64,000 nt of DNA, taken from NCBI GenBank assembly GCA_965202725.1, contig OZ241845.1, positions 1,834,621 to 1,898,620 on the forward strand, read 5' to 3'. This document shows positions 27,356 to 46,888 of this stretch, piece by piece. This DNA is from Candidatus Poribacteria bacterium (lineage in GTDB: Bacteria; Poribacteria; WGA-4E; WGA-3G). The notes below the pieces were generated by a model. That model ran no database searches. It worked only from the letters and a program-made list of their open reading frames with translations, and was not told the DNA's origin. Both the position numbers and the translations under genes were made by a program. Each line of letters begins with the position of its first letter. The stretch's first letter is position 1.

Positions 27356-27394
27356 GAATGTCCTCCTGGTTATTACAGGCAACGGCACGGGCTC

Positions 27395-30440: not shown

Positions 30441-30465
30441 CAATTTACCTCCAGTTTGGTTTATA

Positions 30466-30494
30466 AGCATACCCTAAATTTGCACATAAGTCAA
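30466..30494 (-). promoter_or_regulatory. cas2-SWIM operon promoter (TTGACT-N17-TATGCT, minus strand)
   Basis: The minus strand reads aaaaTTGACT tatgtgcaaatttaggg TATGCT. About 20 nt further is GGAGGT, then the cas2 ATG. It shares about 40 nt with the array 1 leader promoter region. Confidence 0.55.
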
Positions 30495-31100: not shown

Positions 31101-32732
31101 GTGAACTATCGCGATATTTTAAAAGACATTCGCCAGGCTTTTCCGCAACCTGTAGCAGACCCTATCCATAATTCCTATTTCGTGCATTCTATCATGCGCG
31201 CCTTGGACCAGGTCGATGAACTCAAAACACATCTGCCAATGCTCGGCAGCGTCATCCCTGCTGATTTTGCAGCAGCGCGCCAGACAACCCTACCTGAAAC
31301 GATGTCCTCCGTTAAGGATGTCACAACCGACCTCGTGAGCTACCTCCGAGGTATGACGATCTTCGGACACCCGCGCACGCAACAGAACGTTGTTGCCCCA
31401 CCAACAATTCCAAGCCTGATCGGGGTGCTCCTCGCGTCTCTCTACAATCCAAACCTCGCCTGGGATGAATACAGTCGACTAGTGGCATTGGCTGAGGTTG
31501 AGGTCATCGGGATGACCTCAAAAATGGTGGGATACGATCCAGAGGCATCAGGCGGCGTATTTACTTTCGGCGGCACGGGAACAACCTTCTACGGGGTAAA
31601 ACTTGGCTTGGAAAAAGCTGACCCAGGCACGGTCGAAAACGGCACCTCTGAAGACGTAGTTGTGTTTGTGTCAGATACAGGCCACTATTGCGCCACGAAC
31701 ATCGTCGGTTGGCTCGGCATCGGAACAAAGAATCTCATCACGATCCCAACGACATTTGAAAACGAAATGGATCTCGAGGTACTGGCACAAGAAACCCGCA
31801 AGGCACTGGAAAACGGAAAAAAGATCGCCGCTATTATTGCTACATTAGGCACCACGGACGCCTTTGGATTGGACGACTTAGCGCGCATCGTGGCGTTACG
31901 GGATAAACTTGTCGAGGACTTCAAACTGGACTATCAACCACACGTTCACGCAGACGCGGTTATCGGATGGGCATGGTCGGTCTTTAACGCTTACGATATT
32001 GAGGAGAACCCCCTAGCGTTTCGCCCGCGCACCCTCCGGGCGTTAGCAGGCACACGCCGGCGGATACGGCATTTAGCCCTCGCCGATTCAATCGGCATTG
32101 ACTTTCACAAAACCGGGTTTGCACCCTACATCTCGAGTCTTCTCCTCGTCAAAAACCGAACGGATCTAGATTTGGTGAAACGGCACCCCGAACAGATGCC
32201 CTATCTTTATCACTTCGGAGATTACCGGCCCGGTATGTACACACTTGAGACTTCAAGGGCAGGAACGGGGGTTCTCGCTGCCCTTGCGAACCTCCGACTC
32301 TTTGGCGAGCAGGGATTGCAAACGATTCTTGGACATATCGTTGAAATGGCCCAGCTCCTGCGCGAACACCTTGGCGGACACGCAGCCACAACCGTGGTCA
32401 ACCGAGAGAACTTCGGAACCGTCACCCTGTTCCGCGCCTATCCAGACGGCGTGGATACTTTCCCAATTCAAAATCAGGAATTTAAAGACCCTGCATATCG
32501 CGACAGCTTGCGCAAACACAACGCGTATAACCAAAAGATTTTTGAATATGTCCAAGCGGAAGCCATGGAGGGCAGGGGGGTGGTTATCTCCACAACGGAC
32601 TGTTACCGATACACTGCTTACGGTGAACCGATTGTCGCGCTAAAGTCATATATCCTCTCCCCGTTCGTCGATGAAGTGGACGTGGAGACTGTGGTCACCA
32701 AGGTGCTGGAAGCGCGGGAGAAGGTTGATTAA
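31101..32732 (+). CDS. PLP-dependent group II amino-acid decarboxylase (tyrosine/glutamate/diaminobutyrate decarboxylase family)
   Basis: 543 aa. The 'DSIGIDFHKTGFAPY' block matches the S-x-HK PLP-lysine motif of group II decarboxylases. Substrate is unknown. Confidence 0.7.
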   Translation: MNYRDILKDIRQAFPQPVADPIHNSYFVHSIMRALDQVDELKTHLPMLGSVIPADFAAARQTTLPETMSSVKDVTTDLVSYLRGMTIFGHPRTQQNVVAPPTIPSLIGVLLASLYNPNLAWDEYSRLVALAEVEVIGMTSKMVGYDPEASGGVFTFGGTGTTFYGVKLGLEKADPGTVENGTSEDVVVFVSDTGHYCATNIVGWLGIGTKNLITIPTTFENEMDLEVLAQETRKALENGKKIAAIIATLGTTDAFGLDDLARIVALRDKLVEDFKLDYQPHVHADAVIGWAWSVFNAYDIEENPLAFRPRTLRALAGTRRRIRHLALADSIGIDFHKTGFAPYISSLLLVKNRTDLDLVKRHPEQMPYLYHFGDYRPGMYTLETSRAGTGVLAALANLRLFGEQGLQTILGHIVEMAQLLREHLGGHAATTVVNRENFGTVTLFRAYPDGVDTFPIQNQEFKDPAYRDSLRKHNAYNQKIFEYVQAEAMEGRGVVISTTDCYRYTAYGEPIVALKSYILSPFVDEVDVETVVTKVLEAREKVD

Positions 32733-32776: not shown

Positions 32777-32986
32777 ATGCCTGAATTACCTGAATTAATG
32801 AGCTCACCACCATTTTTACTAATTGCAGCCGTATTCGCCATATCTATTATCCTCGGGATCCTCAAGCACGCATGGCGTTTCTTGATCTGGATTGCTGGTA
32901 TTGTTGCTGTTCTCCTCTGGCTGGGTGTTACGAATGTACCCCAGATGAGAGACTGGTTTGAGAGACTTCTGAAAATAGTGGAGTGA
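32777..32986 (+). CDS. Possible small two-helix membrane protein (69 aa)
   Basis: Two hydrophobic segments. AGGAAA about 7 nt upstream of the ATG. It overlaps the 3' end of cas6 on the opposite strand, so it may be spurious. Confidence 0.2.
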   Translation: MPELPELMSSPPFLLIAAVFAISIILGILKHAWRFLIWIAGIVAVLLWLGVTNVPQMRDWFERLLKIVE

Positions 32987-33935
32987 TACGGTACTGCCCA
33001 TGTCCAAACGCTGTGTGGTGCCCGATGTGTAGATACTCGCCGAGATAGATAAAGGGTAGGAACGGTTCTAACGCACCGGTAAAGCGAACCTTCCCGATAA
33101 ACCCACCCATCGGAACGGATTTCTCAGCTCGATAGGAGTAGCGATCTGCCCGTATCCAATAAAAATTGGATACGTCCGTTACGGCCTTCGCGGTGTCAAT
33201 TAGGGCCCGGGCATCTACCGCTAAGTCTTCACCACAATGGAAATAGCTCAGGAATCGGATACGCCGGAGTAGGTTGCGGATGAGGTGTTCAAAGGTCAGC
33301 TTGCTTGTCCACTTTCCTTCCACTTTGATGCTGGTGGGTGTGAGAAACTCCAACGCAATCTCATCAATTCCGTTCGGCACGCTACGCATGACGTCGTCCC
33401 GCCCAAGAATCTGACCGTCGTCTGTGAGTAGTTCGGTTGCTGCTGTGTAAATTGTTCGGATGTCTTGGCTGCCCCGTGCGGGAAGGGTTTCTACCTTATC
33501 AAGACGGCACTGTCCGCGTTTCCCACGGATGCCGACCCGCCGCCTACCTATCTCGCGGAAGGTGAAGACCAGCCATGGTAATAGGGTGATTGTCTCGCCG
33601 ATGAGGGTCAGCGTGCAGGTGAAGGTATCGCCGGGGGCATAGTCCAGTTGCTGAGTGTGTGGCGGTTCAAGAATAAACGGGTGCGGCGCGAAGGGCTGTG
33701 CGCGTAGCATTGGACTGTCATCGGGGACAGGCGTTTCAAAGCATTTAGAGTAGACGCACCGGGCTGGGTGCTGGCACTGTGTGTGGCATCGCGTTTCGCC
33801 GCTGATGCATGTTATGTCGCGCAGCAGGTATCCCAACCGGCTGCGGAAGATGTTGCCTTTGTATGCCGGCATCTTTAGCGGTTCTCGGACGGTGTATGTG
33901 AATCGGTAGCGTGCGAATCTGAAGTTTTGGAGCAT
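32928..33935 (-). CDS. cas6: CRISPR repeat endoribonuclease Cas6
   Basis: C-terminal glycine-rich loop 'IGHHTAFGHGQYRI' matches the Cas6 G-x-x-T-x-x-G-x-G signature. The N-terminus 'MLQNFRFARYRFTY' is typical of Cas6. At 335 aa it is longer than most Cas6 proteins. Confidence 0.75.
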   Translation of the reverse strand: MLQNFRFARYRFTYTVREPLKMPAYKGNIFRSRLGYLLRDITCISGETRCHTQCQHPARCVYSKCFETPVPDDSPMLRAQPFAPHPFILEPPHTQQLDYAPGDTFTCTLTLIGETITLLPWLVFTFREIGRRRVGIRGKRGQCRLDKVETLPARGSQDIRTIYTAATELLTDDGQILGRDDVMRSVPNGIDEIALEFLTPTSIKVEGKWTSKLTFEHLIRNLLRRIRFLSYFHCGEDLAVDARALIDTAKAVTDVSNFYWIRADRYSYRAEKSVPMGGFIGKVRFTGALEPFLPFIYLGEYLHIGHHTAFGHGQYRITPLFSEVSQTSLSSGVHS

Positions 33936-33993
33936 GGTCAGTAAGATTTCATCGAACTATCAATTCCGTAGATTTCTATAAAACAGGGAAACG

Positions 33994-35148
33994 CTATGGG
34001 CTTTTGTACACAACGTTACGATTGCCGTAGTGCCTCAGTGTCAAACCGCCAGGAGCCCTTTCACAACTGACCCGAATACCCCGGGCAATACGGAAGGTGT
34101 AGATATTATCATGATTTGCAAGTTGTTGAAACTTGAGGCCAGAAACTCGGGCATTCAGTTGGGTTATATTCCCATTACTCTCTTCCAGCGCTACAGCTAT
34201 CTTCGCCAAGGTTTCCTGAAGGTCTTCCCATTGATCGTTGTTTAACTTCTGACAGTCGTTGGTGAAACTTTGCTGATACACTAACCGAGGGAATTTCAAC
34301 AGTTCTCCAGATAACAGATCTGATTTCGATCGCTGCCAGAGCAACTCCCCCCACGTCGATAATCCCGCATAAGTCTGGCCATTTTCTTCTACGAATTCCA
34401 GAAGCGTTTCTGAAATACCACTAAGCTCGTCAATCGGATATAACTTTCCTGCAGCCATCAATGCAAATTCCGTCAGATTTTCTTCAATAACAGCGGTATT
34501 AATCTGTATTGGCAGGCTCGGGATCTTGATTAACTCAGCATTTTCTGACTCAAAGATATATATCACTTCATCGGCGTAAAATGCCCCGAAGGTATTCATG
34601 TAACCTTGCAGACTCTTGAAGCCCCCGACAAGGTTGAAAATCACGCGATAGCCGCCCCCCTGTAGCGGCGGCACATTGTCCTGTCGCCGCGGCACAGTGT
34701 CCTCAAGCCACTCAATCAATTTCTTTGTCCCCGTGGTGAAGGACTCCGGATCTTGTGTTGAAAGCCGATCAGGAATGAAAACGTTCACGTTAAAGCCTTG
34801 TCCCTCGAGGAAATCCTTAATCAATTCACCAGTTTGTCGTCCTTGTGCGGTATCGGTGCAGATGAGATGGTGTTCGTCATTGCTATCCGTGGGCAGTTGG
34901 CCGCCATAGATGCCGTAAATGCCGTTCAATTCAGCACTGATCCGACGATTAGCCTGGGGATTGTTATCCATAAGCCGTTCGAGTGCTCGGGCCGCAAGTG
35001 TATTAATCACCTCTTTCGCATTGGGTGTTAATTCGTCTTGCGTGAGATTTGCCGAATCTCGCAGCGTTCCGAACCAAGTTCCCTCGTCTTCCCTATCAAT
35101 AAGATTTGTCAGGATACTGGTTCCAACAGTTGATAAAATAAAACGCAT
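33994..35148 (-). CDS. CARF-RelE fusion effector (Cami1-like cyclic-oligoadenylate-activated mRNA interferase, predicted)
   Basis: N-terminal CARF signature 'MRFILSTVGTSILTN'. The C-terminal roughly 90 aa, 'IYTFRIARGIRVSCERAPGGLTLRHYGNRNVVYK', aligns by eye with the RelE/ParE toxin core (YRIxYxxD...LxVLxxGHRxxxY). Confidence 0.65.
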   Translation of the reverse strand: MRFILSTVGTSILTNLIDREDEGTWFGTLRDSANLTQDELTPNAKEVINTLAARALERLMDNNPQANRRISAELNGIYGIYGGQLPTDSNDEHHLICTDTAQGRQTGELIKDFLEGQGFNVNVFIPDRLSTQDPESFTTGTKKLIEWLEDTVPRRQDNVPPLQGGGYRVIFNLVGGFKSLQGYMNTFGAFYADEVIYIFESENAELIKIPSLPIQINTAVIEENLTEFALMAAGKLYPIDELSGISETLLEFVEENGQTYAGLSTWGELLWQRSKSDLLSGELLKFPRLVYQQSFTNDCQKLNNDQWEDLQETLAKIAVALEESNGNITQLNARVSGLKFQQLANHDNIYTFRIARGIRVSCERAPGGLTLRHYGNRNVVYKSP

Positions 35149-35180
35149 TATATACCTCTGTTATCAATATTATAAGGTTA

Positions 35181-35285
35181 TCCGAACCGGCTGCGGAAGA
35201 TGTTGCCCTTGTATGCCGGCATCTTTAGCGGTTCTCGGACGGTGTATGTGAATCGGTAGCGTGCGAATCTAACGTTTTGGAGCAT
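35181..35285 (-). pseudogene. Duplicated cas6 5' fragment (35 codons then stop)
   Basis: Encodes 'MLQNVRFARYRFTYTVREPLKMPAYKGNIFRSRFG*'. About 100 nt are roughly 95% identical to 33833-33935. It starts 9 nt after the stop of the upstream CARF gene. Confidence 0.6.
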
Positions 35286-35293
35286 AGTGTTGT

Positions 35294-36391
35294 TCACGCC
35301 CAACCGAAGGCAGCGCGTATGTATCGATGAAATGTTTGCCGGAGGTCATACCACGTATTTTTCCCCCAGATTTCTAAAGACTGGCTTGAACGCCCTGTTT
35401 CTTCTCTCAATTCGGCTTGGATTAGCTGCTGCGCCTCTTGCGAAGCCCCACACAACACAATCGCACGTGCCTCAACACCGCCGAGTTGCCGCATCCGTAA
35501 AATAGCCTCCATCCCTTTTTCCTTCACCCGGTCATGTTTATAAGCAAGGGTACACGAAACGACAACGACTTGGTAACCCAGGACTGCAACTACGTCAAGT
35601 TCAAAAGGCTTCACACTTGCGTCTGATAGATCGGATCGTCGGACATATACCTTGTGGAAAAGTCTATAGTTGTTCCGATCCGGGCACTGTCGGGACACAT
35701 CTCCCAAGGCATCCTGAAAGGCAGCATACGCCCCGTATTCAAGAAGTTCCGGTGTAGAACACCTACCCCTATTGACTACTGCACGGCCTTTCGCCAATTG
35801 CTCTCGGCTGAGCGTGTTGGGGGCAGGACAACTTCTCGTTTGATTGTTCCCTAATTCATCCCGATATTCATAAAAAAATGGGCCGAGTTCAAAACCGTTG
35901 AGATCAGCAATTCGCAGCAAAGAAGGATCTACTCCCTTGCGAGTATCTGAGACTAAGACATTCCCATTCCGGTCTATGAGGGTCGCCCCCGCGTCGGCAC
36001 GTGGATCCAGATAAGAGGTCTCTACATCCATACCTTGTGATGGAAGGGAAACCTTAAGATTTTCTGCCGCAGCGACGGTTTCAACGCACATCACCTTCGT
36101 GCCACCAGTATAATGTACGTGAATGCAAGTCGTATTGTCTGGTAAATTGTGCACGAGGCTCCGGGTTATGTCGTTGCGTACAGTAGCCGGATTTCCTGAC
36201 ACTGTTTCGACCGTATCAATAACAGGGACATCGCCACTATATTTCAGCAGTCGATCCCGTTCGGGTCTTGTTTCTTTCGTATGCACGAGTCGGACATAGA
36301 TAGGGGCTGGCAGTTTATCTTTCAAATGATGGAGTGCCACCCACACAGGTAGGGGATTGGTGCCAACTGTTAGCATGAGCAGCGTTCCCAT
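35294..36391 (-). CDS. CARF-domain effector with uncharacterised C-terminal domain (possibly restriction-endonuclease-like / Can2-like)
   Basis: N-terminal CARF signature 'MLTVGTNPLPVWVAL'. The C-terminal roughly 170 aa contain 'FELDVVAVLGYQVVVVSCTLAYK', a candidate PD-(D/E)xK-like strand pair. The assignment is weak. Confidence 0.5.
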   Translation of the reverse strand: MGTLLMLTVGTNPLPVWVALHHLKDKLPAPIYVRLVHTKETRPERDRLLKYSGDVPVIDTVETVSGNPATVRNDITRSLVHNLPDNTTCIHVHYTGGTKVMCVETVAAAENLKVSLPSQGMDVETSYLDPRADAGATLIDRNGNVLVSDTRKGVDPSLLRIADLNGFELGPFFYEYRDELGNNQTRSCPAPNTLSREQLAKGRAVVNRGRCSTPELLEYGAYAAFQDALGDVSRQCPDRNNYRLFHKVYVRRSDLSDASVKPFELDVVAVLGYQVVVVSCTLAYKHDRVKEKGMEAILRMRQLGGVEARAIVLCGASQEAQQLIQAELREETGRSSQSLEIWGKNTWYDLRQTFHRYIRAAFGWA

Positions 36392-36469
36392 GGGGACAGT
36401 TTCCTCCGTTTTCCTACAAATTTTGCTGAACTCCGAAAAGGTCGTGCTTGTGCTGCGGTATTTCAGGGG

Positions 36470-36526
36470 CTCTTAGACGGTGTATGTAAATCGGTAGCGT
36501 GCGAATCTGAAGTTTTGAAGCATCAT
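36470..36526 (-). pseudogene. Second duplicated cas6 5' fragment (17 codons then stop)
   Basis: Encodes 'MMLQNFRFARYRFTYTV*'. It overlaps the csx1 stop in an ATGA context and matches the cas6 5' end for about 55 nt. Confidence 0.5.
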
Positions 36527-37974
36527 GGAAGTTGTGCGATAAATTTATGTTGCTCATTGAAAGAAACAGCATCAATACAAGCAAGCTCTTGCGCCATCTT
36601 GAAGCGTTTTTCAACAGTTGACTTAAAAGCGTTGAATTCTTTGCTACTGATTATGCGCATACCATGTGCGTAAATACTTTGATTCCTCGTTCCCACTTGG
36701 TTTTGAAACCTTCCCCAGTCCAAGTCTTGAACAATTTCATCTTCCAGGGCGTGTAATAAGAGATATCCGTCAATCAACCCAATGGGGGCAGGAAGAACAG
36801 ACCTATCTGTGCGTTGGAAAACTTCTTTCAATTTAGCCTTATACCGACTGAAAATTTCAGCCTTATCAATACCAGAGTAATCCGGGTTACGAGTGTCAAT
36901 CTTGTACCCTGCAAGACGGTGTTGTTCTATCCACTCAAGAAGCCGATAGAGAATCAGACAGGCAGTGTCGTGTTTTCCTTGTGCTTCTCGACGAAGTGCA
37001 TTGTGATAGAGCATAAACGCAAAGTGAAATCCATTAGGCGCATTAAGTGCTTCATGTTCGGTTTTGAGAAACGTCAATAAACGGTTCAATGCTTCCGTTT
37101 GTTTGTCAAGACGGGACCTTAAATCTTGGAGACGACTTAGCCCTTCTAACATCGAAAATTGACAAAGAAGTTCCACCAATCGAACTAAATAAGTTCTGGA
37201 CTTGCCAATATCAAGATTATCCCAAGCCTCATAGGCTGTGCAGAGGTATTCATAAGCTTCGTAAATTTTGACTTTATTGGTATCACCAACTTTTGATTTG
37301 AGTTGATCAAAAATACGCTGCGCTCCAGCGTAATCGTGCTCGTTGTATAGGTTTCTTGCCTTCTCAACCTCTAAATCACCAAACACGGTGTAAGGGTTAT
37401 CTAAGAGACTGAGATATTCAGAGCCCGGTTCAGGTTTCTGTAGTACAAATGAGGTGTTGTCCACATAATAAATATCGGCACCAAGTGCAGCACCTGCCAT
37501 CGCTGCGCCACCAACCATTGACTTTTTGCCTCCTGTGATATCTACGGCAATATTCGTTGGTTTGCCCCACTCAGTGTAAAGTTCCATGATTGTCTTGTAT
37601 ACTTCCACAGTGCTGCTTCCATCAATTCTGCGCACGGCAAGCTGGTCGAGCTGTAACTTCGTTTCGTCCTGAATTCTTTGCAGAAATCCGGCTGTTTCTT
37701 CTGTGTGAAGTAAAGCAACCCATTCAGGTCTTATCGCGAGGATAGAAAGAATTAGCGGTTCAGGGGAGAAACCAACAGTCAAAATGAGAACATCATACTC
37801 TTTATTGGGGCAATTTGCGGGTTTTTTGAGAAAGACCTCCTTGACAAGTGGGAAAATCTGTTCGTCATAGAAAGTGCCTGCGGTTCTTCTGGCCTCGTGA
37901 GAAGTACGGTCCATCTCCTGCCATTCTGAGAACAGTGCATTAAGTTTGGTTTCGAGGGTTTTGTTTTTCGACAT
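36523..37974 (-). CDS. csx1: Csx1-family CARF-HEPN ribonuclease
   Basis: CARF signature 'VLILTVGFSPEPLILSI', and C-terminal HEPN R-x4-6-H motif 'RNQSIYAHG' about 50 aa from the end. A length of 483 aa is typical of Csx1. Confidence 0.8.
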   Translation of the reverse strand: MSKNKTLETKLNALFSEWQEMDRTSHEARRTAGTFYDEQIFPLVKEVFLKKPANCPNKEYDVLILTVGFSPEPLILSILAIRPEWVALLHTEETAGFLQRIQDETKLQLDQLAVRRIDGSSTVEVYKTIMELYTEWGKPTNIAVDITGGKKSMVGGAAMAGAALGADIYYVDNTSFVLQKPEPGSEYLSLLDNPYTVFGDLEVEKARNLYNEHDYAGAQRIFDQLKSKVGDTNKVKIYEAYEYLCTAYEAWDNLDIGKSRTYLVRLVELLCQFSMLEGLSRLQDLRSRLDKQTEALNRLLTFLKTEHEALNAPNGFHFAFMLYHNALRREAQGKHDTACLILYRLLEWIEQHRLAGYKIDTRNPDYSGIDKAEIFSRYKAKLKEVFQRTDRSVLPAPIGLIDGYLLLHALEDEIVQDLDWGRFQNQVGTRNQSIYAHGMRIISSKEFNAFKSTVEKRFKMAQELACIDAVSFNEQHKFIAQLP

Positions 37975-38169: not shown

Positions 38170-38802
38170 CTAAGGAATAACTTGGGTCACATGACCGTTT
38201 GCATTGACTCCTTGAACTCTCAATTTAACCTGTGCTTCAGCATTCCAAGGGTAATAAGAACGTTCAAAAACAAGTTCCTCATTATTTTTAGTTTGTAACT
38301 GCACCGTTACCTTAAACCCGTCGTTCTTCAGAATAGCCGCTTTGACCCTGTCCCCGACCTTGATTTTCGGTTTCTCTGGTTCTTTTGGCGGTTGTGGTGT
38401 TTGCGTGTGAGGCATTTCCAGTGTTTGCTGTGGTGCTTGTGGTACTAGTGGATGGTGTTGTTCCTTGACAGCCCGTTCTGGCTCAACGCAATAGTATCGC
38501 ATCAACCGTAGACTCCAACCGAGAATCGTCAGGATTTCACCCGTATCACTGATACTATGAAGGTGCGTTTCACAGGCTTCTTGGATGTTTTGGTAATATT
38601 CCTGCGTCTGGCTGCTCCGAATGAGGGCATTTTGCGTATTTGCCAATCGATGAACGAGGTCCATGAGCCTATCCTTAGCGTTGTCTTCCCCTTTGTAGCG
38701 TCTCATGAAAGCAACTACTTTACCAAATTCATTAGGGTCCGTGTCCCAGTCAACCAAATCAAATGCGATGTCGTGGGCGATAGACCAATGTTTTTTATCC
38801 AT
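38170..38802 (-). CDS. Uncharacterised type III-linked protein: helical N-domain, Pro-rich linker, small beta-barrel-like C-domain
   Basis: 210 aa. The N-terminal roughly 125 aa are helical. The linker is 'PQAPQQTLEMPHTQTPQPPKEPEKPK'. The C-terminus 'IKVGDRVKAAILKNDGFKVTVQL...' looks KOW/OB/SH3-like. It sits between the last Cas7 gene and csx1. Confidence 0.4.
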   Translation of the reverse strand: MDKKHWSIAHDIAFDLVDWDTDPNEFGKVVAFMRRYKGEDNAKDRLMDLVHRLANTQNALIRSSQTQEYYQNIQEACETHLHSISDTGEILTILGWSLRLMRYYCVEPERAVKEQHHPLVPQAPQQTLEMPHTQTPQPPKEPEKPKIKVGDRVKAAILKNDGFKVTVQLQTKNNEELVFERSYYPWNAEAQVKLRVQGVNANGHVTQVIP

Positions 38803-38814
38803 GGGATACCTCCA

Positions 38815-39732
38815 TCAATAAAGTCCAGATGGGCAGTTTCTATCATTCGGGTAGCGGAGAATTTCAGCAAGCTTTTTCAATAGATCTATTTTGATGAGAG
38901 ATCCCATTGCTGCTTCTATGCATTTGCTTTTCCATTTCCTCAATTGTGCACCTGTCTTTGCCGATTTCGGCTGAACGTTCCAGTCTAAATACTTTTGCTG
39001 GTTTTGTTTTTCAACCTGAACCTCATCAATATCAATATCGATTGAACCGAAGCATACAGGCTTCGCACCGCCAATTTTGAGTTTAAATGGATAATCAGAA
39101 TTGTGTCCCAACGCCGTTAAAAACAAACCCCACTCTGCTTGGGTTAGGTTGTCAACCTGCACGACAAACTGAAATTTTGAATCTTCCTCCCATGCTTCAA
39201 CGGGGGTTTTACCCGTAGCCACCTCCCCGTGCTTGTAAAATTTTCGTCCTTGCTGTCGACGCGGCTTATAAAGCTCAGGGACATATTTCGTTACAATTTG
39301 TCCTTTAATTAGTGGAGCATCCTGTATTGCAATATTGGATTGAAAACCCATAGCCCCAAACATACGGCAGGAAACACACAGTTTACCTCCTGGACGACAT
39401 TCCGATGAACGGGTATTACAGATGCAGCTTTCCGAAATTGCCTCAACAACGCTCCGAATAGCACCTTTAAGTGAGCTACCGGGGATAAGGGCATTTCTAT
39501 CCGTTCGGACTGCTGTTTTGATAAGTTCTTCATTCTGATCGATATCAATAACGCCGCTGCCAATATAGATGGGGGATAATGCCTTTATTCTTCCAATGAC
39601 CTTACCTGTTGTATATGTATTTGTCTGGCGGTAGCTATCATGTCCGATTGGAGATTCTCTATTAACCCCCTGTGGAAGCGGAACAAAGTCGAAAGGTTTT
39701 AGTGCAGCCTGTTTGGGTTGAGATTGACCCAT
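38815..39732 (-). CDS. RAMP (Cas7 group, Csm5/Cmr6-like) subunit
   Basis: 'ALIPGSSLKGAIRSVVEAIS' G-rich RAMP loop, a C4 zinc-finger-like 'CICN...C...CVSC', and C-terminal 'GGAKPVCFGSIDI'. Confidence 0.7.
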   Translation of the reverse strand: MGQSQPKQAALKPFDFVPLPQGVNRESPIGHDSYRQTNTYTTGKVIGRIKALSPIYIGSGVIDIDQNEELIKTAVRTDRNALIPGSSLKGAIRSVVEAISESCICNTRSSECRPGGKLCVSCRMFGAMGFQSNIAIQDAPLIKGQIVTKYVPELYKPRRQQGRKFYKHGEVATGKTPVEAWEEDSKFQFVVQVDNLTQAEWGLFLTALGHNSDYPFKLKIGGAKPVCFGSIDIDIDEVQVEKQNQQKYLDWNVQPKSAKTGAQLRKWKSKCIEAAMGSLIKIDLLKKLAEILRYPNDRNCPSGLY

Positions 39733-39744
39733 GATTCTTGCTCC

Positions 39745-40230
39745 TTACTTTCTTACAAAAGCCATGTATCGCGTAAAACGAATAGTATGAGAAATGCTTT
39801 CTTTATACTGAATTATATTGATTTTTGGAGATTGGCACCATTTCATTGGATATTTAAGTTTTCGCGGGATTCGCGTATCTCGCCATGGTTTAGTTTCACC
39901 ACCACCGAGTAAGGATACTGCCTGTGGTTCGCTTGTTGCCCATTCACCCAATGTGGTAAATTCTGCTGGCAAATCTCCCTCAGACAACCAGAGTAGTGCG
40001 TAACCGATTGACTGCTTTCGCCAGCGGAGTTCCCCGTTTTTGTCAAATATTCTGCCCCATGTATACTCTTCTATTTCTTTTGCGTCTGGTGTTCCTTTTT
40101 TCCAATCGGTGATTTTATCCGGACTTTGGAGTAAGTAATAGGAAGGATCACCGAATTCTAGATCTTTAATTCGTTGTGTAAATTCCAAAATATTAGACGC
40201 TTGTGCGGTTGCAACAATCGCTTTTCCCAC
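39745..40230 (-). CDS. Small uncharacterised protein (161 aa) at the position occupied by Csx19 in III-D loci
   Basis: No motifs recognised. Trp-rich. Embedded between two Cas7 genes with 1-nt and 13-nt gaps. Confidence 0.35.
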   Translation of the reverse strand: MGKAIVATAQASNILEFTQRIKDLEFGDPSYYLLQSPDKITDWKKGTPDAKEIEEYTWGRIFDKNGELRWRKQSIGYALLWLSEGDLPAEFTTLGEWATSEPQAVSLLGGGETKPWRDTRIPRKLKYPMKWCQSPKINIIQYKESISHTIRFTRYMAFVRK

Positions 40231-41151
40231 TTACTCACCCCCTTCGACCATTTCGCGCCATGAACAGACACAGCCTTGCCATAGTGCGATGATTTCGTCC
40301 GGTGATTTAAGGTTTAGTGTAGCACCTAGTCCGTAATCATCTTGTTGTGCTTGTACACTTACATCGACGGAATCAGGATTAGGAAATCCATAATTGCATG
40401 CGTTATCCACAAGTTGTCCTGCGCCCACAACGATCTTGTCTTTAAATGATGTAGTTTGTCCTACAAATTTCAATTGCTTATTTTCAACAATCGCTGTTGG
40501 GTATCGAATTTCAACGCTGCTGACTTTCATGTTTACCTGTCCTAAGCCGCGTGATTTTGCGTAACCGAGACCTACCCGTTGTTCGTCAAAGTCACGGACG
40601 GCAAGTGCAATAAGTCCAAGCTGAGCTGTTGTAAAGTTCTTCAGAGTGATTTTCGTTCTAAACTCGCCTGAAATGATAACTTCAAAGTTGAACGGACCAA
40701 AGGCAACAGAACCAAAGAGCCTGTTGATCGCAACACCATTACGTTCTTCTCGACGAATTCCTTTCGGATCGATAGGATATGCATCGGCAATACGCGCATG
40801 CGCTGAAATTTTTGTACTGCCAAAGATTTGGCAAACCGTGCAGGTATTTTGGTAAAGGGCGGCACTGTCTTCTGCTTTTAAATTTCTACATAGCGAGTCA
40901 TCTTTCAACGGATCACATGTGGTGACATTCCCTCCGAGTGTCCGCACAATCCGCTCACAATGTGCACGAATCGCCCCTTTCAGTGAGGAGCCCGGAAGAT
41001 AAACGCTTCTATCCCCAGCATGATAGGTTTCAACGAACTCCATATCTGGTTTGGTCGGGTCTGCCCCTTGGTCGCTCGCTTTGATGAGCAGCGGTCCGAC
41101 AGGAGAGATCACTAATTCAATGATGGCTTGGTTGACAATCCGTTTGTGCAT
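40231..41151 (-). CDS. RAMP Cas7 (Csm3/Cmr4-like) subunit
   Basis: 'VYLPGSSLKGAIRAH', a zinc-finger-like 'C...C...CTVCQIFGS', and a G-rich loop 'GYAKSRGLGQV'. Confidence 0.75.
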   Translation of the reverse strand: MHKRIVNQAIIELVISPVGPLLIKASDQGADPTKPDMEFVETYHAGDRSVYLPGSSLKGAIRAHCERIVRTLGGNVTTCDPLKDDSLCRNLKAEDSAALYQNTCTVCQIFGSTKISAHARIADAYPIDPKGIRREERNGVAINRLFGSVAFGPFNFEVIISGEFRTKITLKNFTTAQLGLIALAVRDFDEQRVGLGYAKSRGLGQVNMKVSSVEIRYPTAIVENKQLKFVGQTTSFKDKIVVGAGQLVDNACNYGFPNPDSVDVSVQAQQDDYGLGATLNLKSPDEIIALWQGCVCSWREMVEGGE

Positions 41152-41987
41152 TAACTCCCCTCCGATTGCTGTTTAACTTTGTCGTGGAACGCATCTACCC
41201 ACGATTCCCAATTAGCATTGACTCCCATACAGTCTTTGGTCAGATAGTCTATGATATTAGAACCATCAATATAGGCTGTGGTATTAAGTGATAATTCGAT
41301 TTGTCCCAACCCGCGGCTACTTCCGCCGCCAATGGTCAATTCACCCTTCTCAAAAGCAGAAAGACCGAGGTAAAGCATACCGAGCTGCCAATCTGCAGCG
41401 TTGTCAACAATTGCATGAAAATTGAATACAACTTCTGCCGGAACGACTTCAAAATCGTAGAGTTTGCCATCTGAGGCTGTTTCTGTGTCCCGATCAATTG
41501 CAACACCGTCGCGTTGCTGATATTGATCGAACCAGAGATCCTGTTGCACATGCAAATCACGAATTTGCAACTTAGAAGCATACCACAACGATCCGAAGAG
41601 TTGACATACCCAACAAGTATACCCAAGAATTTTTTTGCTAAATTCTTGGTCTGTCCATTTATGCCGTTCCCGAGGATTTTTAAGGCCTCCCTCTCGTGAC
41701 TTTCGCAAACTTTGCATATCACTGCGGTTGATACACTGTCCGCCCTCATCAATAGGGTTACAAACCATGTGCTTGTCGTCTTTAAAGCTTCTCATTATAC
41801 TTTCAATGTAAGACCGGAGAACACCTTTGAAACTTGAGCCAGGTATGTAAGGGCGGTTTGCTGCGTCCCGCACGACAGGAAGATCGGAACTAATAGGTGA
41901 TGTGGAACGCCCCGCACCGATGCGAATTGCAGTTAACGTTTCAACCTCGCCCTCCAAAATGAGCCGGGATTGGAATTTATCAAACAT
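41151..41987 (-). CDS. csm3: RAMP Cas7 (Csm3-like backbone subunit)
   Basis: 'PYIPGSSFKGVLRSYIE', 'CWVCQLFGS', and 'GGGSSRGLGQIEL'. A conserved Asp ('SSDLPV') lies in the loop where the Csm3/Cmr4 catalytic Asp is found. Confidence 0.8.
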   Translation of the reverse strand: MFDKFQSRLILEGEVETLTAIRIGAGRSTSPISSDLPVVRDAANRPYIPGSSFKGVLRSYIESIMRSFKDDKHMVCNPIDEGGQCINRSDMQSLRKSREGGLKNPRERHKWTDQEFSKKILGYTCWVCQLFGSLWYASKLQIRDLHVQQDLWFDQYQQRDGVAIDRDTETASDGKLYDFEVVPAEVVFNFHAIVDNAADWQLGMLYLGLSAFEKGELTIGGGSSRGLGQIELSLNTTAYIDGSNIIDYLTKDCMGVNANWESWVDAFHDKVKQQSEGS

Positions 41988-42469
41988 TAGTTGTTACTCC
42001 CTTTGTATGCCAGAAAAGCTTGATACCGAGCAAGATTGCCTAAGTAAAGCTGCATCAAACGAACGTGAACGCTTTGAATATCTTCTGTCGTTGGATCTTC
42101 ACAGATAGATTGGACAAGATATTCAGCATTTTGAGCTAAGGCCTCAATCTCTTGAACTAATGCCACAGCGAAACTTTCTTTTTTACTTGCCTTGTCACCT
42201 TTACTTCCCTTGTACTTCCACATCGGATTTGAACCCTTCCGACCGAGTTGATAACGGATGTAATTCTTGGTTATTTCGATACCACTTCCAGATTCTGTGG
42301 CAACATTTAGCACATTGCGAAGTGGCGATTTCTGTGGAACATTGCCAAGATTATACCTATCCGCGAATTTCCGCATCTCCGGTATAAGTGTTTCCATCTG
42401 TTTACCTATTTTCTGCTCAACCTTTAAATTTTTCTGTTTTTCAGTGATAGCTCGTTCTGTTTGACTCAT
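41987..42469 (-). CDS. Type III small subunit (Cas11; Csm2/Cmr5-like)
   Basis: 160-aa helical protein, basic, located directly after the Cas7-Cas5 gene with overlapping stop and start. Assigned by size, position and composition only. Confidence 0.5.
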   Translation of the reverse strand: MSQTERAITEKQKNLKVEQKIGKQMETLIPEMRKFADRYNLGNVPQKSPLRNVLNVATESGSGIEITKNYIRYQLGRKGSNPMWKYKGSKGDKASKKESFAVALVQEIEALAQNAEYLVQSICEDPTTEDIQSVHVRLMQLYLGNLARYQAFLAYKGSNN

Positions 42470-44328
42470 CGTGTTTCCTCCTCATTTTGCAGCCAAGCGC
42501 CTTCTGATTTAACCTGCCCTCGTGACCGAAGATGGAACGCGTCGCAAATCGTTATCTGCCCGAAACCTTCTTCACGCCGATCGCCGATGCCGTTATTTTC
42601 GAGTGTCTGCAAGGCAGAAATCCACGCCTTAATATCAGGTGTATGAAAAACAAAGACGCTTCCCATTTTCGTGACAAGGTCCGTCTCTTTCGGTACCCCC
42701 CATGCCGCATTCCACCCACCAACATAATCGTAACTCGCAAAACTTCGGATGAAGGTCACTTCAGTCCCACAACCTGTCATCTGCTTAAGCATCGGAGCGG
42801 TGATAACCATGCTCCGCTGCCACCCATCTTCTGCTGTGAGAATCGCGTCGGATTGCAAGTTCACACTAAAATAAATGCCATCAAACGCACCTATTCCAAC
42901 GTTTGATAGCTGGAAATAGTTATTCCAAGTTTCTTGTAAAGCACAGTTAAATTTATCGATGCGTTGTTTCAATGTATCCTGCACTTCATATTTTTCCACT
43001 TTCAAACTAACTTTCCCAAGTCCGCGTGAACTTCCGCCTCCCAATCGTTTAACCTTTTTCTGTAACGTGTCGGCTACTTTATTCGTTAGGGCTGATGGAA
43101 CTTTCATTGTACCTTGCAAGTATACCTCTTTTCCATCAGTAGACAACGGGTCAACTGCTGTCAAATGGTAGAGTAACTCATCTTCAGCAACTTTACGCTG
43201 CCGGTTGATGGCAACGCGTGTGAGCAATCGCGTGTTAAGAGTATTTTTCGTATAAACACCGTTGGATTCTGTATAGAATCCGCTTTGTGATTCAACACGT
43301 TCCAAACAATGTGGGCAGTTTGGTTGATACATCTGATCTGCCTTTTCAGAAACGATTTTTTCAAAAAGTGTGTCGAAAATTCCGTGTTTATCTTTATCTT
43401 TTCCTCTCAGGAACCCAGAGAAATCCTTGCATCCCACAGCGGTTGCAGGTAACACATTAGCCCCCGGGGTGCAGTTCCGAAAGATACAAGCCTCGTCATT
43501 AAGGAACAGTTGGGTGAATTCATCATCAGGTTTACGATTTTCTAAATTAGATAATAACACATTTGCTAAAGCCCCACGTATTAACCCACCGCGAATATAA
43601 TTGACTGCCTCAACTGCCTGTCCTGCTGGTTTACGTCCACCTGTAATGATGGGTGATTCCAACGTAACATGAATTAATAACTCGGTGGATTCCTCTGAAT
43701 TGATTTCTATTGACTGAAGCTCTTGTGTAGTGGGTGTAATTTCTTTATGTTCAATTTTTAACCACCCGATTCCACGGGTTTTGCCTGAGCCGATGGCGTG
43801 AATGTATTTAAGTCCAGCGGATAGTAGTTTAATGTGATTATCTGTAATACTATTACTGATTGTTACATCCCCGGAAAATTCAAATCCAGCGTTAGAGAGG
43901 CTTGTCTCAGTGAAATAGAGACGTTGATCTTCTCCGACTCGCCTGCTGCGATTGATGGTGACTCCGCTTCGGATTTCCGTTGATTCTATTCCCAAATCGC
44001 TTTCCGGTGTGAGATCGCTAATAAATATCCTTGATTCCAATGTCGGTGAACCGAAAATTTGGCAAATAATGCAGTGATTGTCAACACACATATTCTCGGC
44101 ACGCGGACTATTACAAACGGAGTGATTTTCCATCCTGGGTGCAAGGACCTCACACGCGTGCCTCCAGATACCTTTAAGCGTTGAGGCAGGGATATATAGT
44201 TTGCCATCACGGGTCTTGACCGTTGACTTGTCTGCACCTATTTCACTACCACCGCTGTCACCGATGCACAGTGCTGTATCAACTGTTGTTGTAATCCGCC
44301 ACTGTTTTTCAGTCGTTGAATTCGTCAC
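42466..44328 (-). CDS. Large two-RAMP protein, probable Cas7-Cas5 (Csx10/Csm4-like) fusion
   Basis: 620 aa. The first RAMP has 'LYIPASTLKGIWRH', a C-rich thumb and 'CQIFGS'. The second RAMP starts around residue 215 ('YIRGGLIRGALANV'). C-terminal G-rich loop 'GGGSSRGLGKVSL'. Confidence 0.6.
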   Translation of the reverse strand: MTNSTTEKQWRITTTVDTALCIGDSGGSEIGADKSTVKTRDGKLYIPASTLKGIWRHACEVLAPRMENHSVCNSPRAENMCVDNHCIICQIFGSPTLESRIFISDLTPESDLGIESTEIRSGVTINRSRRVGEDQRLYFTETSLSNAGFEFSGDVTISNSITDNHIKLLSAGLKYIHAIGSGKTRGIGWLKIEHKEITPTTQELQSIEINSEESTELLIHVTLESPIITGGRKPAGQAVEAVNYIRGGLIRGALANVLLSNLENRKPDDEFTQLFLNDEACIFRNCTPGANVLPATAVGCKDFSGFLRGKDKDKHGIFDTLFEKIVSEKADQMYQPNCPHCLERVESQSGFYTESNGVYTKNTLNTRLLTRVAINRQRKVAEDELLYHLTAVDPLSTDGKEVYLQGTMKVPSALTNKVADTLQKKVKRLGGGSSRGLGKVSLKVEKYEVQDTLKQRIDKFNCALQETWNNYFQLSNVGIGAFDGIYFSVNLQSDAILTAEDGWQRSMVITAPMLKQMTGCGTEVTFIRSFASYDYVGGWNAAWGVPKETDLVTKMGSVFVFHTPDIKAWISALQTLENNGIGDRREEGFGQITICDAFHLRSRGQVKSEGAWLQNEEETR

Positions 44329-46888
44329 TTATATCTTCCTCGTTTTGGTCTTCAGGTTCAGGGATAAAATCATAAGCCTCAATTATATCGAAAATTAATG
44401 TTTCATACTCGGCTTCACCGGTTCGGTGTTCCACCGGTATCGTGTACCAAGGTCCCTGACCGTTCACGCTATGGGAAACACTTTGCCAATTATGTTCAAT
44501 TTGCTCCTGAAGCAGTTCGCCTTTTCCGTCTCCAAGACGACTTCGGAAGTAGAGGTAATCGAGCGTTGATGTTGATCTACCAAGTTCAATCGACTGCCGA
44601 AGTTGGTAGAGTTGTGAACGTGGGAACTCATCTTTTTTGAACGCTTGAATGGTGTGAATGAACCTCGAAAGTTCGTGCAATGTGAAAGGACGCATGGTTA
44701 ACACATTCTGTTCATCTGTTTTGTAAAATTTTTTGCGGAAATCGCCAAGTTCACTTGAAATCATTGAAAGCGACTTTAGCACGAGGAAATCAACCGTTCC
44801 ACCGAGATAAGCGACATCTGGCTTCTTTAACGTCTTTGCTCTGGCTTTTGCTGTTCTGAGTAAGCTACCGGCGAGATGCTCTAAAAATCCAACCGGTGTA
44901 TGTCCTTCAGCAATGACGAAACCCAATGAGAGACTAAATACTGGTTGCATATTCTGCTCATCTATCCATTCGCTTCGCGCGTAACGCTGAGATTTACGTA
45001 GTTTATCTTTTTCTGTAAATTTTGAGTAACTGTTAAATTCCTGATCGAAGTTTTTCCCAATAGCATGAACGACATCAAACGCCGCGCTACCCGGCACGAT
45101 GAGCAACAAATCATCTCCACCAATACTGATGATTTCAAATGGCAGGACTCCGTCATCGTTAGGTTTAAGATAGACAGCAAGTGCATCAAACGCTGCTTTT
45201 TGAAGTGCAATAAAAACACGTTCAGAAAACTGTCTATACTGCGCGGGAGTTTCAATGTTTTCCAAATATCCCCCCATGTTGTTACCATCAGCATAGATGA
45301 ACGTGATAAAACCTTTAGGATTACTTGTGTCAGCGATGTCTTCAAGGTCTTGAGGACCTCCCACATCTTCAAAAGGCTGGTCTTTGGTAAAATATTGATT
45401 CGCCTTAGCAGTTGCCTTCAAATAACTTTTGAATAGCGAACTCCAATCATTAAGATACCATCCTCCGTTTTCCTTTTGGGTCGCAGGTTGCCAACCGGAA
45501 AGTTGATCCAAATAGTGACTAATACTGCCCTGTTCCTTTGATTTATCATTTTCCTTTTTTGTGATACGCCCAACAACATATTTCCGTATGCATGCTTCAC
45601 AAATGTTTCGTGGATTGTTGATGATTGCGGGTCGCCGTTCGCAACTTTCACATCGGAGTTGATACGGACCGATTTCTACGTGTGTTGGTAGGTCGCGCCG
45701 TGATGTCCTGTTTGGTGCTGGATTCCCTTCTCGGCGACGCATCTGTTCTTGTGCCAACTTTGTTGTTAGCTCGCCGAAACATTTTCTATTGAAAAAATCG
45801 GCCTCAGTATCGCCATAATAGTTTGTCATCAGTTCTTTATTTTTTCCGTGCGCACACGTTTTACGGAAATCTTCCACCCAAAAATGTGTAGGATTGAGTC
45901 CATACTGTAACTCTAGTAGATCGAATGTATCGCCTACTGCTACACTGTTTGCGACAAGTGTTTCTTTGGTGTAAATCCGTTCAATTTCGTCTGCGATGTG
46001 GTAAACAATAGAAGCCGGTGTGAATGCCAGCGTATTGCCACCTGCAGCGTAGATGATGCATTCTGGCGAGTTGATCGTATGTCCTATCCGATCGCTAAAT
46101 TCTTTTCGGATGCGATCCGATTGCTTTTTATCATAGGGTTTCCGGCCGAATAGGGCAGGGACATATTCAAGATTAATGCGGTCAAGTAAGGCACTTGCGC
46201 CGCGAATCTCTGGAAGCTTGGAAGATTCAAGGAAGTAACCTTTGATCTTCGTCGCTCCACCTAACACAAGTCCGATCTGTTGTTTCTGATTCGGATCGTT
46301 CGGGTTGAGAGAATGCGTGCCGAATTGTCCTTTCTCGCCAATTGTTTCTCGATCAGAAGCGGCCGTTTTTGCCAGATATACGATGCGTTCAAGGTTGTTT
46401 CCATCTGCTTTAGGTTCAATCGGTGTGTTTCCAATCCACAATGCCTTGTAAACCTCGCCCATACCATCGCCTTGCCAAGTTGCGGTCATAGCAGAAAGAC
46501 GGAGTTTATCCAATGTTTCATCATTAGGGCGGGTATCTTCATCGTAACCAAGACAGTATGCTATTGCTGATGCGGTTAGGGAATGATCAGCAATGGTTGC
46601 TCCTGGGAGTGAAGGACAAGGCAGCCATCGAAACAGATGTTTGCCGTTTTTCCCTTGCCAGAGTTCTTGGATCTGTGGAAGCAGTAAGTCAAGAATACAA
46701 GAGACACGATCCGCTATGGGGAGATCCGCGCAGTCACCGATGTGTTCGACAGTCTGTTGAATTGTAGCATCCCAATCCTCCTCTGTGATACCAAACTCAT
46801 CTTCAAGAATCGGATCTTTCCAACTCGGATCTTTCCAACAGTGATGCCGGTCTTCAATCTGTTTACCTATTTTCCAGTCTCGTGTCAT
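44309..46888 (-). CDS. cas10: Cas10 (Csm1/Cmr2-type large subunit) with GGDD cyclase palm; no recognisable HD motif
   Basis: 859 aa. 'EIISIGGDDLLLIVPGS' is the GGDD palm. Treble-clef zinc finger 'CESCERRPAIINNPRNICEACIRK'. Degenerate first palm 'IIYAAGGNTLAFTP'. The N-terminal 200 aa lack an HD dyad. Confidence 0.85.
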   Translation of the reverse strand: MTRDWKIGKQIEDRHHCWKDPSWKDPILEDEFGITEEDWDATIQQTVEHIGDCADLPIADRVSCILDLLLPQIQELWQGKNGKHLFRWLPCPSLPGATIADHSLTASAIAYCLGYDEDTRPNDETLDKLRLSAMTATWQGDGMGEVYKALWIGNTPIEPKADGNNLERIVYLAKTAASDRETIGEKGQFGTHSLNPNDPNQKQQIGLVLGGATKIKGYFLESSKLPEIRGASALLDRINLEYVPALFGRKPYDKKQSDRIRKEFSDRIGHTINSPECIIYAAGGNTLAFTPASIVYHIADEIERIYTKETLVANSVAVGDTFDLLELQYGLNPTHFWVEDFRKTCAHGKNKELMTNYYGDTEADFFNRKCFGELTTKLAQEQMRRREGNPAPNRTSRRDLPTHVEIGPYQLRCESCERRPAIINNPRNICEACIRKYVVGRITKKENDKSKEQGSISHYLDQLSGWQPATQKENGGWYLNDWSSLFKSYLKATAKANQYFTKDQPFEDVGGPQDLEDIADTSNPKGFITFIYADGNNMGGYLENIETPAQYRQFSERVFIALQKAAFDALAVYLKPNDDGVLPFEIISIGGDDLLLIVPGSAAFDVVHAIGKNFDQEFNSYSKFTEKDKLRKSQRYARSEWIDEQNMQPVFSLSLGFVIAEGHTPVGFLEHLAGSLLRTAKARAKTLKKPDVAYLGGTVDFLVLKSLSMISSELGDFRKKFYKTDEQNVLTMRPFTLHELSRFIHTIQAFKKDEFPRSQLYQLRQSIELGRSTSTLDYLYFRSRLGDGKGELLQEQIEHNWQSVSHSVNGQGPWYTIPVEHRTGEAEYETLIFDIIEAYDFIPEPEDQNEEDISDEFND

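Follow-up and report, generated by a model that had tools for sequence, protein, structure and literature searches.

In the arrays of orphan toxin-immunity modules that lie downstream of rhs and cdiA, each displaced module retains part of the conserved gene, and this fragment, 95% identical over 522 bp in Salmonella rhs, serves homologous recombination between copies (PMC3967940). These arrays are the closest analogue of the system described here, a type III-D CRISPR locus of sponge-symbiont Candidatus Poribacteria in which two of three CARF-domain effector genes are each followed by a remnant of the 5' end of cas6. We refer to these remnants as scars, and to the whole stretch of 64,000 nucleotides (nt) that was analyzed (contig OZ241845.1, positions 1,834,621 to 1,898,620) as the window. 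As in the rhs and cdiA arrays, variable cargo is swapped beside a conserved gene, and earlier cargo stays in place with a fragment of that anchor gene, as found for 14 of the 14 scars tested. Unlike in those arrays, the anchor lies downstream of the cargo, so that 5' fragments of cas6 pile up, whereas in rhs the fragments of the conserved region are attached to toxin tips. The cargos here are also complete genes, predicted to be translated separately from their own ribosome-binding sites and kept within the operon, so that the arsenal grows where older rhs and cdiA modules are silenced, and they belong to CRISPR signalling rather than to interbacterial toxins.

Integron arrays provide a second point of comparison, since they also consist of promoterless single-gene cassettes that share one orientation and are stacked at a single site beside a fixed anchor. 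However, the locus has no attC sites, its crossover point is not fixed, homology arms of ~100 nt are found instead, and no integrase or other tyrosine or serine recombinase was detected among the open reading frames (ORFs) at 24764-50030 searched against Pfam and NCBIfam.

Homology-facilitated illegitimate recombination, which was reportedly described in naturally transformable bacteria by de Vries and Wackernagel in 2002 and by Prudhomme et al. in 2002, anchors one end by homology, joins the other end illegitimately, and inserts foreign genes beside a conserved anchor. Its usual products differ from the present structure in that they replace recipient DNA and do not duplicate the anchor, leaving it a candidate for the founding step only.

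Type III effector sets are known to be mixed and matched, and the gain of a second or third effector has so far been described only as 'module shuffling'. In a survey of 1113 type III loci, two effectors commonly co-occurred (e.g., Csx1 with Cami1 in 54 loci, cA4-type), three effectors per locus were rare (3 cases, none with the combination found in the window), and the words 'recombination' and 'exchange' do not appear (PMC11229360). The accessory genes that flank CRISPR-Cas loci are likewise known to be shuffled (PMC6546367). Unlike such surveys, which list co-occurrence or shuffling, the scars would show the order and mode of gain; the literature searched held no description of cas6 remnants flanking effectors.

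Copies of the cas6 5' end in the window

The effector and cas6 genes all lie on the minus strand and are arranged in transcription order as CARF-HEPN, scar 1, CARF-PD-(D/E)xK (Can2-like), scar 2, CARF-RelE and intact cas6. A repeat search paired 33829-33938 with 35179-35288 (110 nt at 95%) and defined a three-copy family of 62 nt at 33874-33935, 35224-35285 (97%) and 36462-36523 (89%). Within the 64 kb there are three matches to the first 48 nt of cas6, with 0, 2 and 2 mismatches, whereas none of 100 dinucleotide-preserving shuffles gave any 48-nt match (0 expected by chance), and a profile of 58 cas6 5' ends recovered exactly three copies and no more, the two fragments with nhmmer E values of 1.6e-30 and 5e-15. 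In both fragments homology begins exactly at the cas6 ATG, and the segment from which they were copied corresponds to cas6 nt 1 to ~117 (33819-33935). Both fragments thus derive from cas6.

Most of the original prediction, made from the sequence of this region, agrees with these results. It placed a ~95% identical copy of the cas6 5' end at 35181-35285, which holds at 95-97% over 110 nt and, with three matches against none expected from shuffles, is well beyond chance. It also held that the region upstream of cas6 is not duplicated, and that 58-nt stretch is indeed the native spacer between CARF-RelE and cas6. The third copy, given as ~55 nt, is in fact ~98 nt long (36426-36523), of which only the first 48 nt still resemble the resident cas6. 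Finally, the statement that each fragment starts right at the preceding stop codon is accurate for this third copy, whose ATG overlaps the TGA of the 483-amino acid (aa) CARF-HEPN gene by one base, but not for the second, whose ATG lies 8 nt past the TGA of the 365-aa Can2-like gene.

Scars match the native cas6 junctions of related loci

A Cas6 protein scan of one genome per species returned 60 related loci (L001-L060), all but one from Candidatus Poribacteria, in which related cas6 genes accompany interference modules of several different kinds. The gene directly 5' of cas6 varies among at least 10 families, each with a characteristic spacing. For example, CARF-HEPN directly precedes intact cas6 in L005, L006, L017, L022 and L032, its stop codon overlapping the start of cas6 by one base as in the window, the Can2-like gene does so in 12 loci with a gap of ~10 nt, and CARF-RelE in L002, L008, L015, L036, L047 and others with a gap of 37-62 nt; the remaining genes found at this position are a double-CARF gene, two CARF2-HEPN families, CARF5, Cmr6, III-D Cas7, Csx19 and RAMP. 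Thus each effector of the window occurs elsewhere as the sole gene directly 5' of an intact cas6, with the junction seen in the window, where each has kept its own junction: CARF-RelE still adjoins the intact cas6, and the first two effectors each adjoin a fragment of it.

Using tblastn and nhmmer, we identified 16 cas6 5' fragments in 15 loci, all beginning at the cas6 ATG: two in the window and the others in L003, L007, L011, L015, L019, L020, L021, L023, L035, L038, L041, L044, L051 and L060. For all 14 scars tested, the alignment ran without interruption from the upstream gene through the spacer into the scar and matched a locus with the same gene before intact cas6 (e.g., L041 and L047 aligned from -300 to +97 at 90%), indicating that each scar is the former cas6 start of a locus in which that gene preceded cas6. 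The original prediction had proposed to look for related loci carrying one or two effectors before the same cas6, and both were found. In addition to the single-effector loci above, L007 consists of CARF-HEPN, a scar, the Can2-like gene and cas6, and the window is colinear with it over 2.2 kb, up to cas6 nt 107. Two window segments are also colinear with other loci: the 365-aa gene together with scar 2 aligns at 86% with the 365-aa gene and cas6 nt 1-107 of L003, and the stretch that begins 14 nt upstream of CARF-RelE and extends to the end of cas6 aligns at 79% with L002. The reverse two-effector order (CARF-RelE, scar, Can2-like gene, cas6) is present in L021 and L041, and in L015 a scar meets CARF-RelE at an independent junction, where the edge of the cargo is different. 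A metagenome scan with Cas6 returned just 7 loci, none close and none bearing a scar, and a scan of viral contigs returned nothing.

The contig that carries L021 (VXYV01000028.1) is labelled as a gammaproteobacterial metagenome-assembled genome; its locus (Cmr genes, CARF-RelE, scar, Can2-like gene and cas6) is typical of the Poribacteria set, and the label likely reflects a binning error or horizontal transfer. Several of the 60 loci have lost sequence. L001, whose cas6 is the closest relative, has lost all but the final 70 codons of the CARF-RelE gene before cas6 (9730-9939); the cas6 of L055 (9990-10606) has an internal deletion that joins nt ~50 to codon ~116; and in L056, L059 and L060 cas6 (from 10001) is cut after 70-136 codons. 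Deletion losses of effectors and cas6 are frequent in the clade.

A Can2-like cassette shared by diverged loci

In 10 loci the junction between scar and Can2-like gene is identical, with cas6 nt 1 to ~99-103 followed by CAAAATTTGTAGGAAAACGGAGGAAACTGCCCTCATG, the native upstream region of the Can2-like gene that includes its ribosome-binding site; in L014 the same ~35 nt precede the gene with no scar. This cassette was found behind at least 7 different genes (CARF-HEPN, CARF-RelE, double-CARF, CARF2-HEPN, CARF5, csx21 and a small ORF), in loci that differ in their type III interference module. Between cassette loci the sequence upstream of the scar is unrelated (0.35 identity), whereas the scar and the gene are 0.84-0.93 identical. 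Where two loci encode an identical residue, the codon is also identical at a frequency of 0.79 in the cassette gene versus 0.58 in the body of the adjacent cas6, with the cassette ahead in all 45 pairs. It follows that the cassette is younger than the adjacent cas6 genes and has probably been exchanged among loci that had already diverged.

Scar 1, which precedes this cassette gene in the window, is a mosaic. Its nt 1-48 (36476-36523) match the resident cas6 at 46 of 48 positions, including the lineage-specific A33 and A39, while nt 49-99 (36426-36475) match the cassette consensus, taken from the equivalent scar in nine other loci, at 39 of 51 positions versus 27 of 51 for the resident cas6. 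Informative sites are of the cas6 type at 5/5 positions in nt 1-48 and at 2/16 in nt 49-99; a Fisher test gives p=0.001 for this split, which was picked post hoc. This composition explains why only 55 nt of similarity had been noticed previously, and it would be the expected product of a left crossover inside the scar as the cassette entered a CARF-HEPN-cas6 locus. L007 and scar 1 of the window have two derived bases in common, which suggests that both come from one insertion event.

Scar 2 is 97% identical to the cas6 of its own locus over 100 nt, compared with 0.89 for the next-best cas6 (L005). By inspection of the alignment, the differences look like point changes made after the duplication, approximately three on the scar and one on cas6. 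Such closeness would fit either a recent addition of CARF-RelE or homogenisation of the two copies by gene conversion.

Proposed serial accretion of effector-cas6 units

The explanation we favor, with a probability of roughly 0.78, is serial accretion, in which units of one effector plus cas6 would be joined illegitimately into the 5' part of a resident cas6 and would then be spread or lost by homologous recombination. Each scar would accordingly mark an effector-cas6 unit joined behind an existing one. In the case of the window, the ancestral locus would have ended in CARF-HEPN followed by cas6. It may then have gained a pre-existing cassette, made up of an old cas6 scar, the fixed junction and the Can2-like gene, through a left crossover inside the scar at ~48-54 nt from the ATG, giving the arrangement of CARF-HEPN, scar, Can2-like gene and cas6 that is seen in L007. 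In a recent third step, a CARF-RelE-cas6 unit would have been joined at nt ~113 of the resident cas6, the putative donor being a type III-B-like locus with the order cmr6-CARF-RelE-cas6. The founding event of each junction type would be an illegitimate join 71-143 nt into cas6. Once founded, a gene that has a scar to its left and cas6 to its right would possess two homology arms, and RecA-type homologous recombination could insert it into any related locus or loop it out. We infer these pathways, and the order and direction of the events, from the junctions. The serial addition of effectors anchored in the cas6 5' end, as first proposed from the window, is thus supported by the 60 related loci through their native junctions, the L007 intermediate and the decayed scars.

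The alternative that survives best, although we consider it improbable, is a fusion of two adjacent type III loci by a deletion running from ~100 nt into the first cas6 to just before the second effector, with no cassette inserted at all. Single genomes with several loci carrying homologous cas6 genes do exist (L001 with L056, L042 with L043, L029 with L039 and L050 with L055), and partial deletions of effectors or cas6 do occur (L001, L055, L056 and L059). Moreover, the CARF-RelE junction retains sequence that natively follows cmr6 in type III-B-like loci, which indicates that the donor unit came from a full cmr6-CARF-RelE-cas6 locus. Nevertheless, a fusion of this kind accounts only for the founding of a junction. 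It fails to explain why an identical junction lies behind at least 7 unrelated genes and why the cassette is younger than its right-hand cas6, it gives no reason to expect all deletions to start within the first 143 nt of cas6, and for the window it needs two paralogous cas6 genes that are 97% identical at their 5' ends.

Scars do not behave as functional elements

A selected function for the scars, whether as a small ORF, as an element for translational coupling or re-initiation, or as a regulatory site in RNA or DNA after each effector, is in our view very unlikely. In its favor, the ATG of each scar lies at or near the preceding stop codon. In addition, cas6 codons 1-30 (window 33846-33935; compared across L001-L060) show raised synonymous conservation, with 0.68-0.80 identical codons given identical residues versus ~0.5 elsewhere in the gene, which hints at constraint at the DNA level or at homogenisation. 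The scars themselves are decayed, however. Their reading frames stop at different points (codon 17 in scar 1 of the window and codon 35 in scar 2), they have suffered deletions of 11-42 nt in L003, L007 and L019 and a frameshifting 1-nt deletion in L041, and the ATG is lost in L044. Furthermore, the pairwise identity of scar nt 49-99, the half carried by the cassette, is 0.78, equal to the third-codon-position identity of the adjacent cassette gene (0.78), as expected of sequence diverging at a neutral rate. The scars are therefore not a conserved small ORF, the finding that would have spoken against the original prediction, but non-functional remnants of cas6.

Signals that could act at the level of transcription, translation or RNA were also lacking. 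The original prediction raised the possibility that the fragments provide a promoter or ribosome-binding site for the downstream gene; sequence predictions gave no promoter- or terminator-like site on the coding strand within the scars, with regional counts at or below shuffle expectation, and each downstream gene has its ribosome-binding site in its native spacer, outside the scar. The cas6 5' block (the repeat unit) folds no better than its shuffles (z +0.87), and its consensus fold of -5.8 kcal/mol shows almost no covariation. We also considered the scar as a CRISPR-repeat-like site for Cas6 binding in the operon mRNA and rejected it, the best local alignment being 8/9 nt. Finally, many related loci carry the same effectors with no scar.

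Breakpoints and the conserved 5' block of cas6

Seven junction types could be distinguished, with breakpoints at cas6 nt 71, 78, 89, ~100, ~113, ~116 and 143, all within the first 15% of the gene. This spread is too variable for a site-specific mechanism and bears on the integron-like accretion to which the original prediction likened the locus, in which a recombinase would recognise a site in the cas6 5' end and insert promoterless effector cassettes. The formal resemblance stands, in that cassettes are stacked at one position, in one orientation, 5' of one anchor gene, and are apparently read from the operon promoter. The mechanism is highly unlikely, since breakpoints differ between junction types, the cassette ends have no inverted repeat, hairpin or attC-like structure, and the cargos differ at their left edges, where each has its own native upstream sequence. 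The neighboring ORFs searched for a recombinase gave instead Cas proteins, a reverse transcriptase, Cas1, a pyridoxal phosphate (PLP) decarboxylase, a SWIM protein, a Rieske protein and a sigma-70 factor. Target-site duplication by a transposon was rejected as well, because the duplications vary in length (71-143 nt) and the single-effector cargo has neither inverted repeats nor a transposase. Least likely of all is an assembly artefact, in which the cas6 repeats would stem from mis-joined reads of different strains: the window does come from a metagenome assembly, but the same structure is present in 14 independent assemblies, many of them complete long-read chromosomes of 5-7 Mb, the contig was found in two samples, and a 100-nt repeat is far shorter than long reads.

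The breakpoints fall around the most conserved part of cas6. Mean pairwise identity is 0.84 over nt 1-90 and ~0.72 over the rest of the gene, with dips to 0.66-0.69 at nt 91-180, and nt 1-90 hold the longest exact match in 553 of 1485 pairs. No other stretch of the gene is so well conserved, which makes this block the best available homology arm between diverged loci and would favor the spread of cassettes that carry it. Between L005 and L006 the block is an island of 0.95 identity with ~0.8 on both sides, and we therefore rejected the idea that in this pair it travelled together with the upstream effector; between L001 and L002 the corresponding values are 0.97 in the block, 0.81-0.91 upstream and 0.87-0.89 downstream. 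Frequent short-patch gene conversion and constraint on DNA or RNA are candidate causes of the synonymous conservation of codons 1-30. Tentatively, and with more doubt than belief, the ~90-nt block that opens cas6 may not only supply scars passively but be maintained as a docking sequence, comparable to an integron attachment site but working without a recombinase.

Several points count against serial accretion. Recombination is known from its products only, no event having been observed directly. The split point in the mosaic test of scar 1 was chosen after inspection of the data. The pairwise synonymous comparisons that date the cassette are not independent of one another and assume a similar codon-usage constraint in both genes, and the cas6 tree on which the scatter of upstream genes was viewed is an unsupported neighbor-joining tree. 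The 97% identity of scar 2 could stem from gene conversion between direct repeats rather than from recency, and it requires either donor and recipient loci with near-identical cas6 5' blocks or an event within one genome. Close population variants with or without CARF-RelE did not turn up, exact-protein look-ups giving only the window's own contig (L068, identical). Finally, a simple model of random breaks does not account for the clustering of all seven junction types in the first 143 nt of a 1-kb gene; possible reasons include selection against longer N-terminal fragments of Cas6 and illegitimate recombination anchored by homology.

Gene content of the locus

Domain and profile searches confirmed that the locus carries an arsenal of three CARF effectors, as the original prediction stated, and that they belong to distinct classes (CARF1-HEPN, CARF4-PDDEXK and CARF7-RelE, with profile E values of 1e-39 to 1e-133). 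Each of the three is encoded by a complete ORF that has a ribosome-binding site of its own, and the genes share a single operon that is predicted to have no internal terminators (Table 1). The 483-aa protein, previously labelled csx1, is more accurately a CARF-HEPN protein of the TIGR02710 family (NCBIfam E 2.9e-50), with the Pfam domains Csm6 HEPN and Csm6_6H and a PADLOC match to CARF1-HEPN (E 3.5e-133). The 365-aa protein had no match in the Pfam search and was assigned through PADLOC (Csx1, E 3.1e-46; CARF4-PDDEXK, E 1.4e-39) and PDB entry 8q3y, a 'DUF1887 family protein' (E 5.9e-20). The 384-aa protein matches Pfam Cas_APE2256, PADLOC CARF7-RelE (E 2.5e-123) and APE2256-family structures in PDB. 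The AGAGG ribosome-binding site of its gene lies in spacer J', which probably also includes the last bases of cmr6.

Table 1. Coordinates of the effector-cas6 region in the window.
Feature	Position	Strand	Remarks
Type III-D interference genes, upstream in the same operon	38170..46888	-	cas10, large RAMP protein, 160-aa gene, two csx7, csx19, RAMP gene, csx21
CARF-HEPN effector, 483 aa, TIGR02710 family, Csx1/Csm6-like	36523..37974	-	First of three effectors
Scar 1, ~98-nt remnant of cas6 nt 1-99, TAA at codon 17	36426..36523	-	Profile and repeat search, alignments
Junction spacer J (CAAAATTTGTAGGAAAACGGAGGAAACTG...), native upstream region of the CARF-PD-(D/E)xK gene, holds its GGAGG ribosome-binding site	36392..36425	-	Alignments
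CARF-PD-(D/E)xK effector, 365 aa, Can2/Card1-like	35294..36391	-	Second effector, cargo of the widespread cassette
Scar 2, cas6 nt 1 to ~113, encodes MLQNVRFARYRFTYTVREPLKMPAYKGNIFRSRFG then stop	35173..35285	-	97% to resident cas6 over 100 nt
Junction spacer J', ~17-28 nt natively preceding CARF-RelE in cmr6-CARF-RelE-cas6 loci	35149..35172	-	Alignment with L002, L021, L041, L056
CARF-RelE effector, 384 aa, Cami1-like	33994..35148	-	Third effector
Native CARF-RelE-to-cas6 spacer, 58 nt, not duplicated	33936..33993	-	Gaps of 37-62 nt in L002, L008, L015, L036, L047
Intact cas6, 335 aa	32928..33935	-	Pfam PF10040; PADLOC Cas6 E 1.5e-90

The interference module upstream gave matches to the palm2 (cyclase) domain of Cas10, Csx7 (211 bits), the TIGR03986 RAMP protein and Csx21, and a Csx19 match that falls below the curated cutoff (27.6 vs 35 bits). 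Judged by its Cas10 palm domain, Csx19/Csx7 subunits and CARF effectors, the locus is of type III-D with predicted cyclic-oligoadenylate signalling. In the public annotation of L068, cas6 (7277-8221, equal to window 32928-33872) is called from Met22 as a protein of 314 aa. This call leaves out the 21 N-terminal codons, which belong to the duplicated segment and show conservation across all related loci, so automatic annotation would hide the repeat relationship.

In loci where a long Cmr6 (cluster c3, ~450 aa) precedes CARF-RelE, its C-terminal ~115 residues resemble CARF-RelE residues 213-331 at 30-41% identity by tblastn (L002 8364-8711, and likewise L021, L041, L056 and L059), which points to a domain common to a subunit of the complex and the neighboring effector.

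The adaptation genes and CRISPR array lie on the other side of cas6. Just past cas6, between it and the adaptation genes, is a gene for a PLP-dependent decarboxylase of 543 aa (31101-32732, plus strand), an unexpected but conserved CRISPR neighbor that is 76-92% identical and lies close to cas6 in many Poribacteria loci, and that occurs twice in L043. The array, at 19491-23962, contains 59 copies of a 37-nt repeat, with variant repeats concentrated at its 19491 end and one degenerate repeat at 22607; 2.5 perfectly identical repeat-spacer units at 21699-21885 represent a duplicated spacer. The cas1 gene (24764-25756) is adjoined by a separate reverse transcriptase gene (25973-27388, RVT_1), which suggests that spacers are acquired from RNA, and cas2 (~30165-30470) lies 3 kb off, across arrays of palindromic repeats. 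These arrays are built from a 23-nt palindromic element, GTAGCATAGCCTGTTAGGCTGTG, of which the window has 39 copies with at most 3 mismatches (0 expected), located at 24415-28665 and 30725-30792 and also at 11573-13050, 19131-19250 and 48417. Most copies form tandem arrays of 31-38-nt or 93-nt units between the cas1, reverse transcriptase, cas2 and SWIM genes, and a 174-aa ORF at 30521-31045, situated mostly inside a palindrome array, may not be a real gene. The element is nearly absent from the related loci, with one exact copy in L001.

Implications for effector gain

The scars record an order of gain, which would be CARF-HEPN, then the Can2-like cassette, then CARF-RelE recently; they identify the types of parental locus, and they define a discrete, widely spread cassette with homology arms. 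The underlying processes, illegitimate and homologous recombination, are ordinary, and their footprint extends across the clade. What is proposed is a testable mechanism of accretion in which no mobile-element enzymes take part. The same signature can be used in searches, as 5' fragments of an anchor gene inside cas operons would flag recently gained, and possibly new, effectors. In addition, the presence of CARF-HEPN, Can2-like and Cami1-like effectors together makes this locus a rare natural case in which to study cooperation among three effectors.

If the start of cas6 is indeed a docking sequence, synonymous conservation would preserve the ability of the block to recombine between diverged type III loci, whether III-B-like, III-D-like or other, in populations of sponge symbionts. 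Effectors flanked by the block would then form a common pool of cassettes that are looped out as circles and re-inserted into any locus, and the site just 5' of cas6 would be where new cyclic-nucleotide effectors could generally and predictably be sought.

The stacked effectors lie between direct repeats of 48-110 nt. For this reason the arrangement is predicted to be unstable, and effector content should be polymorphic within symbiont populations. Since cas6 scars are also present in 14 other loci, accretion is probably how Poribacteria gain effector genes.

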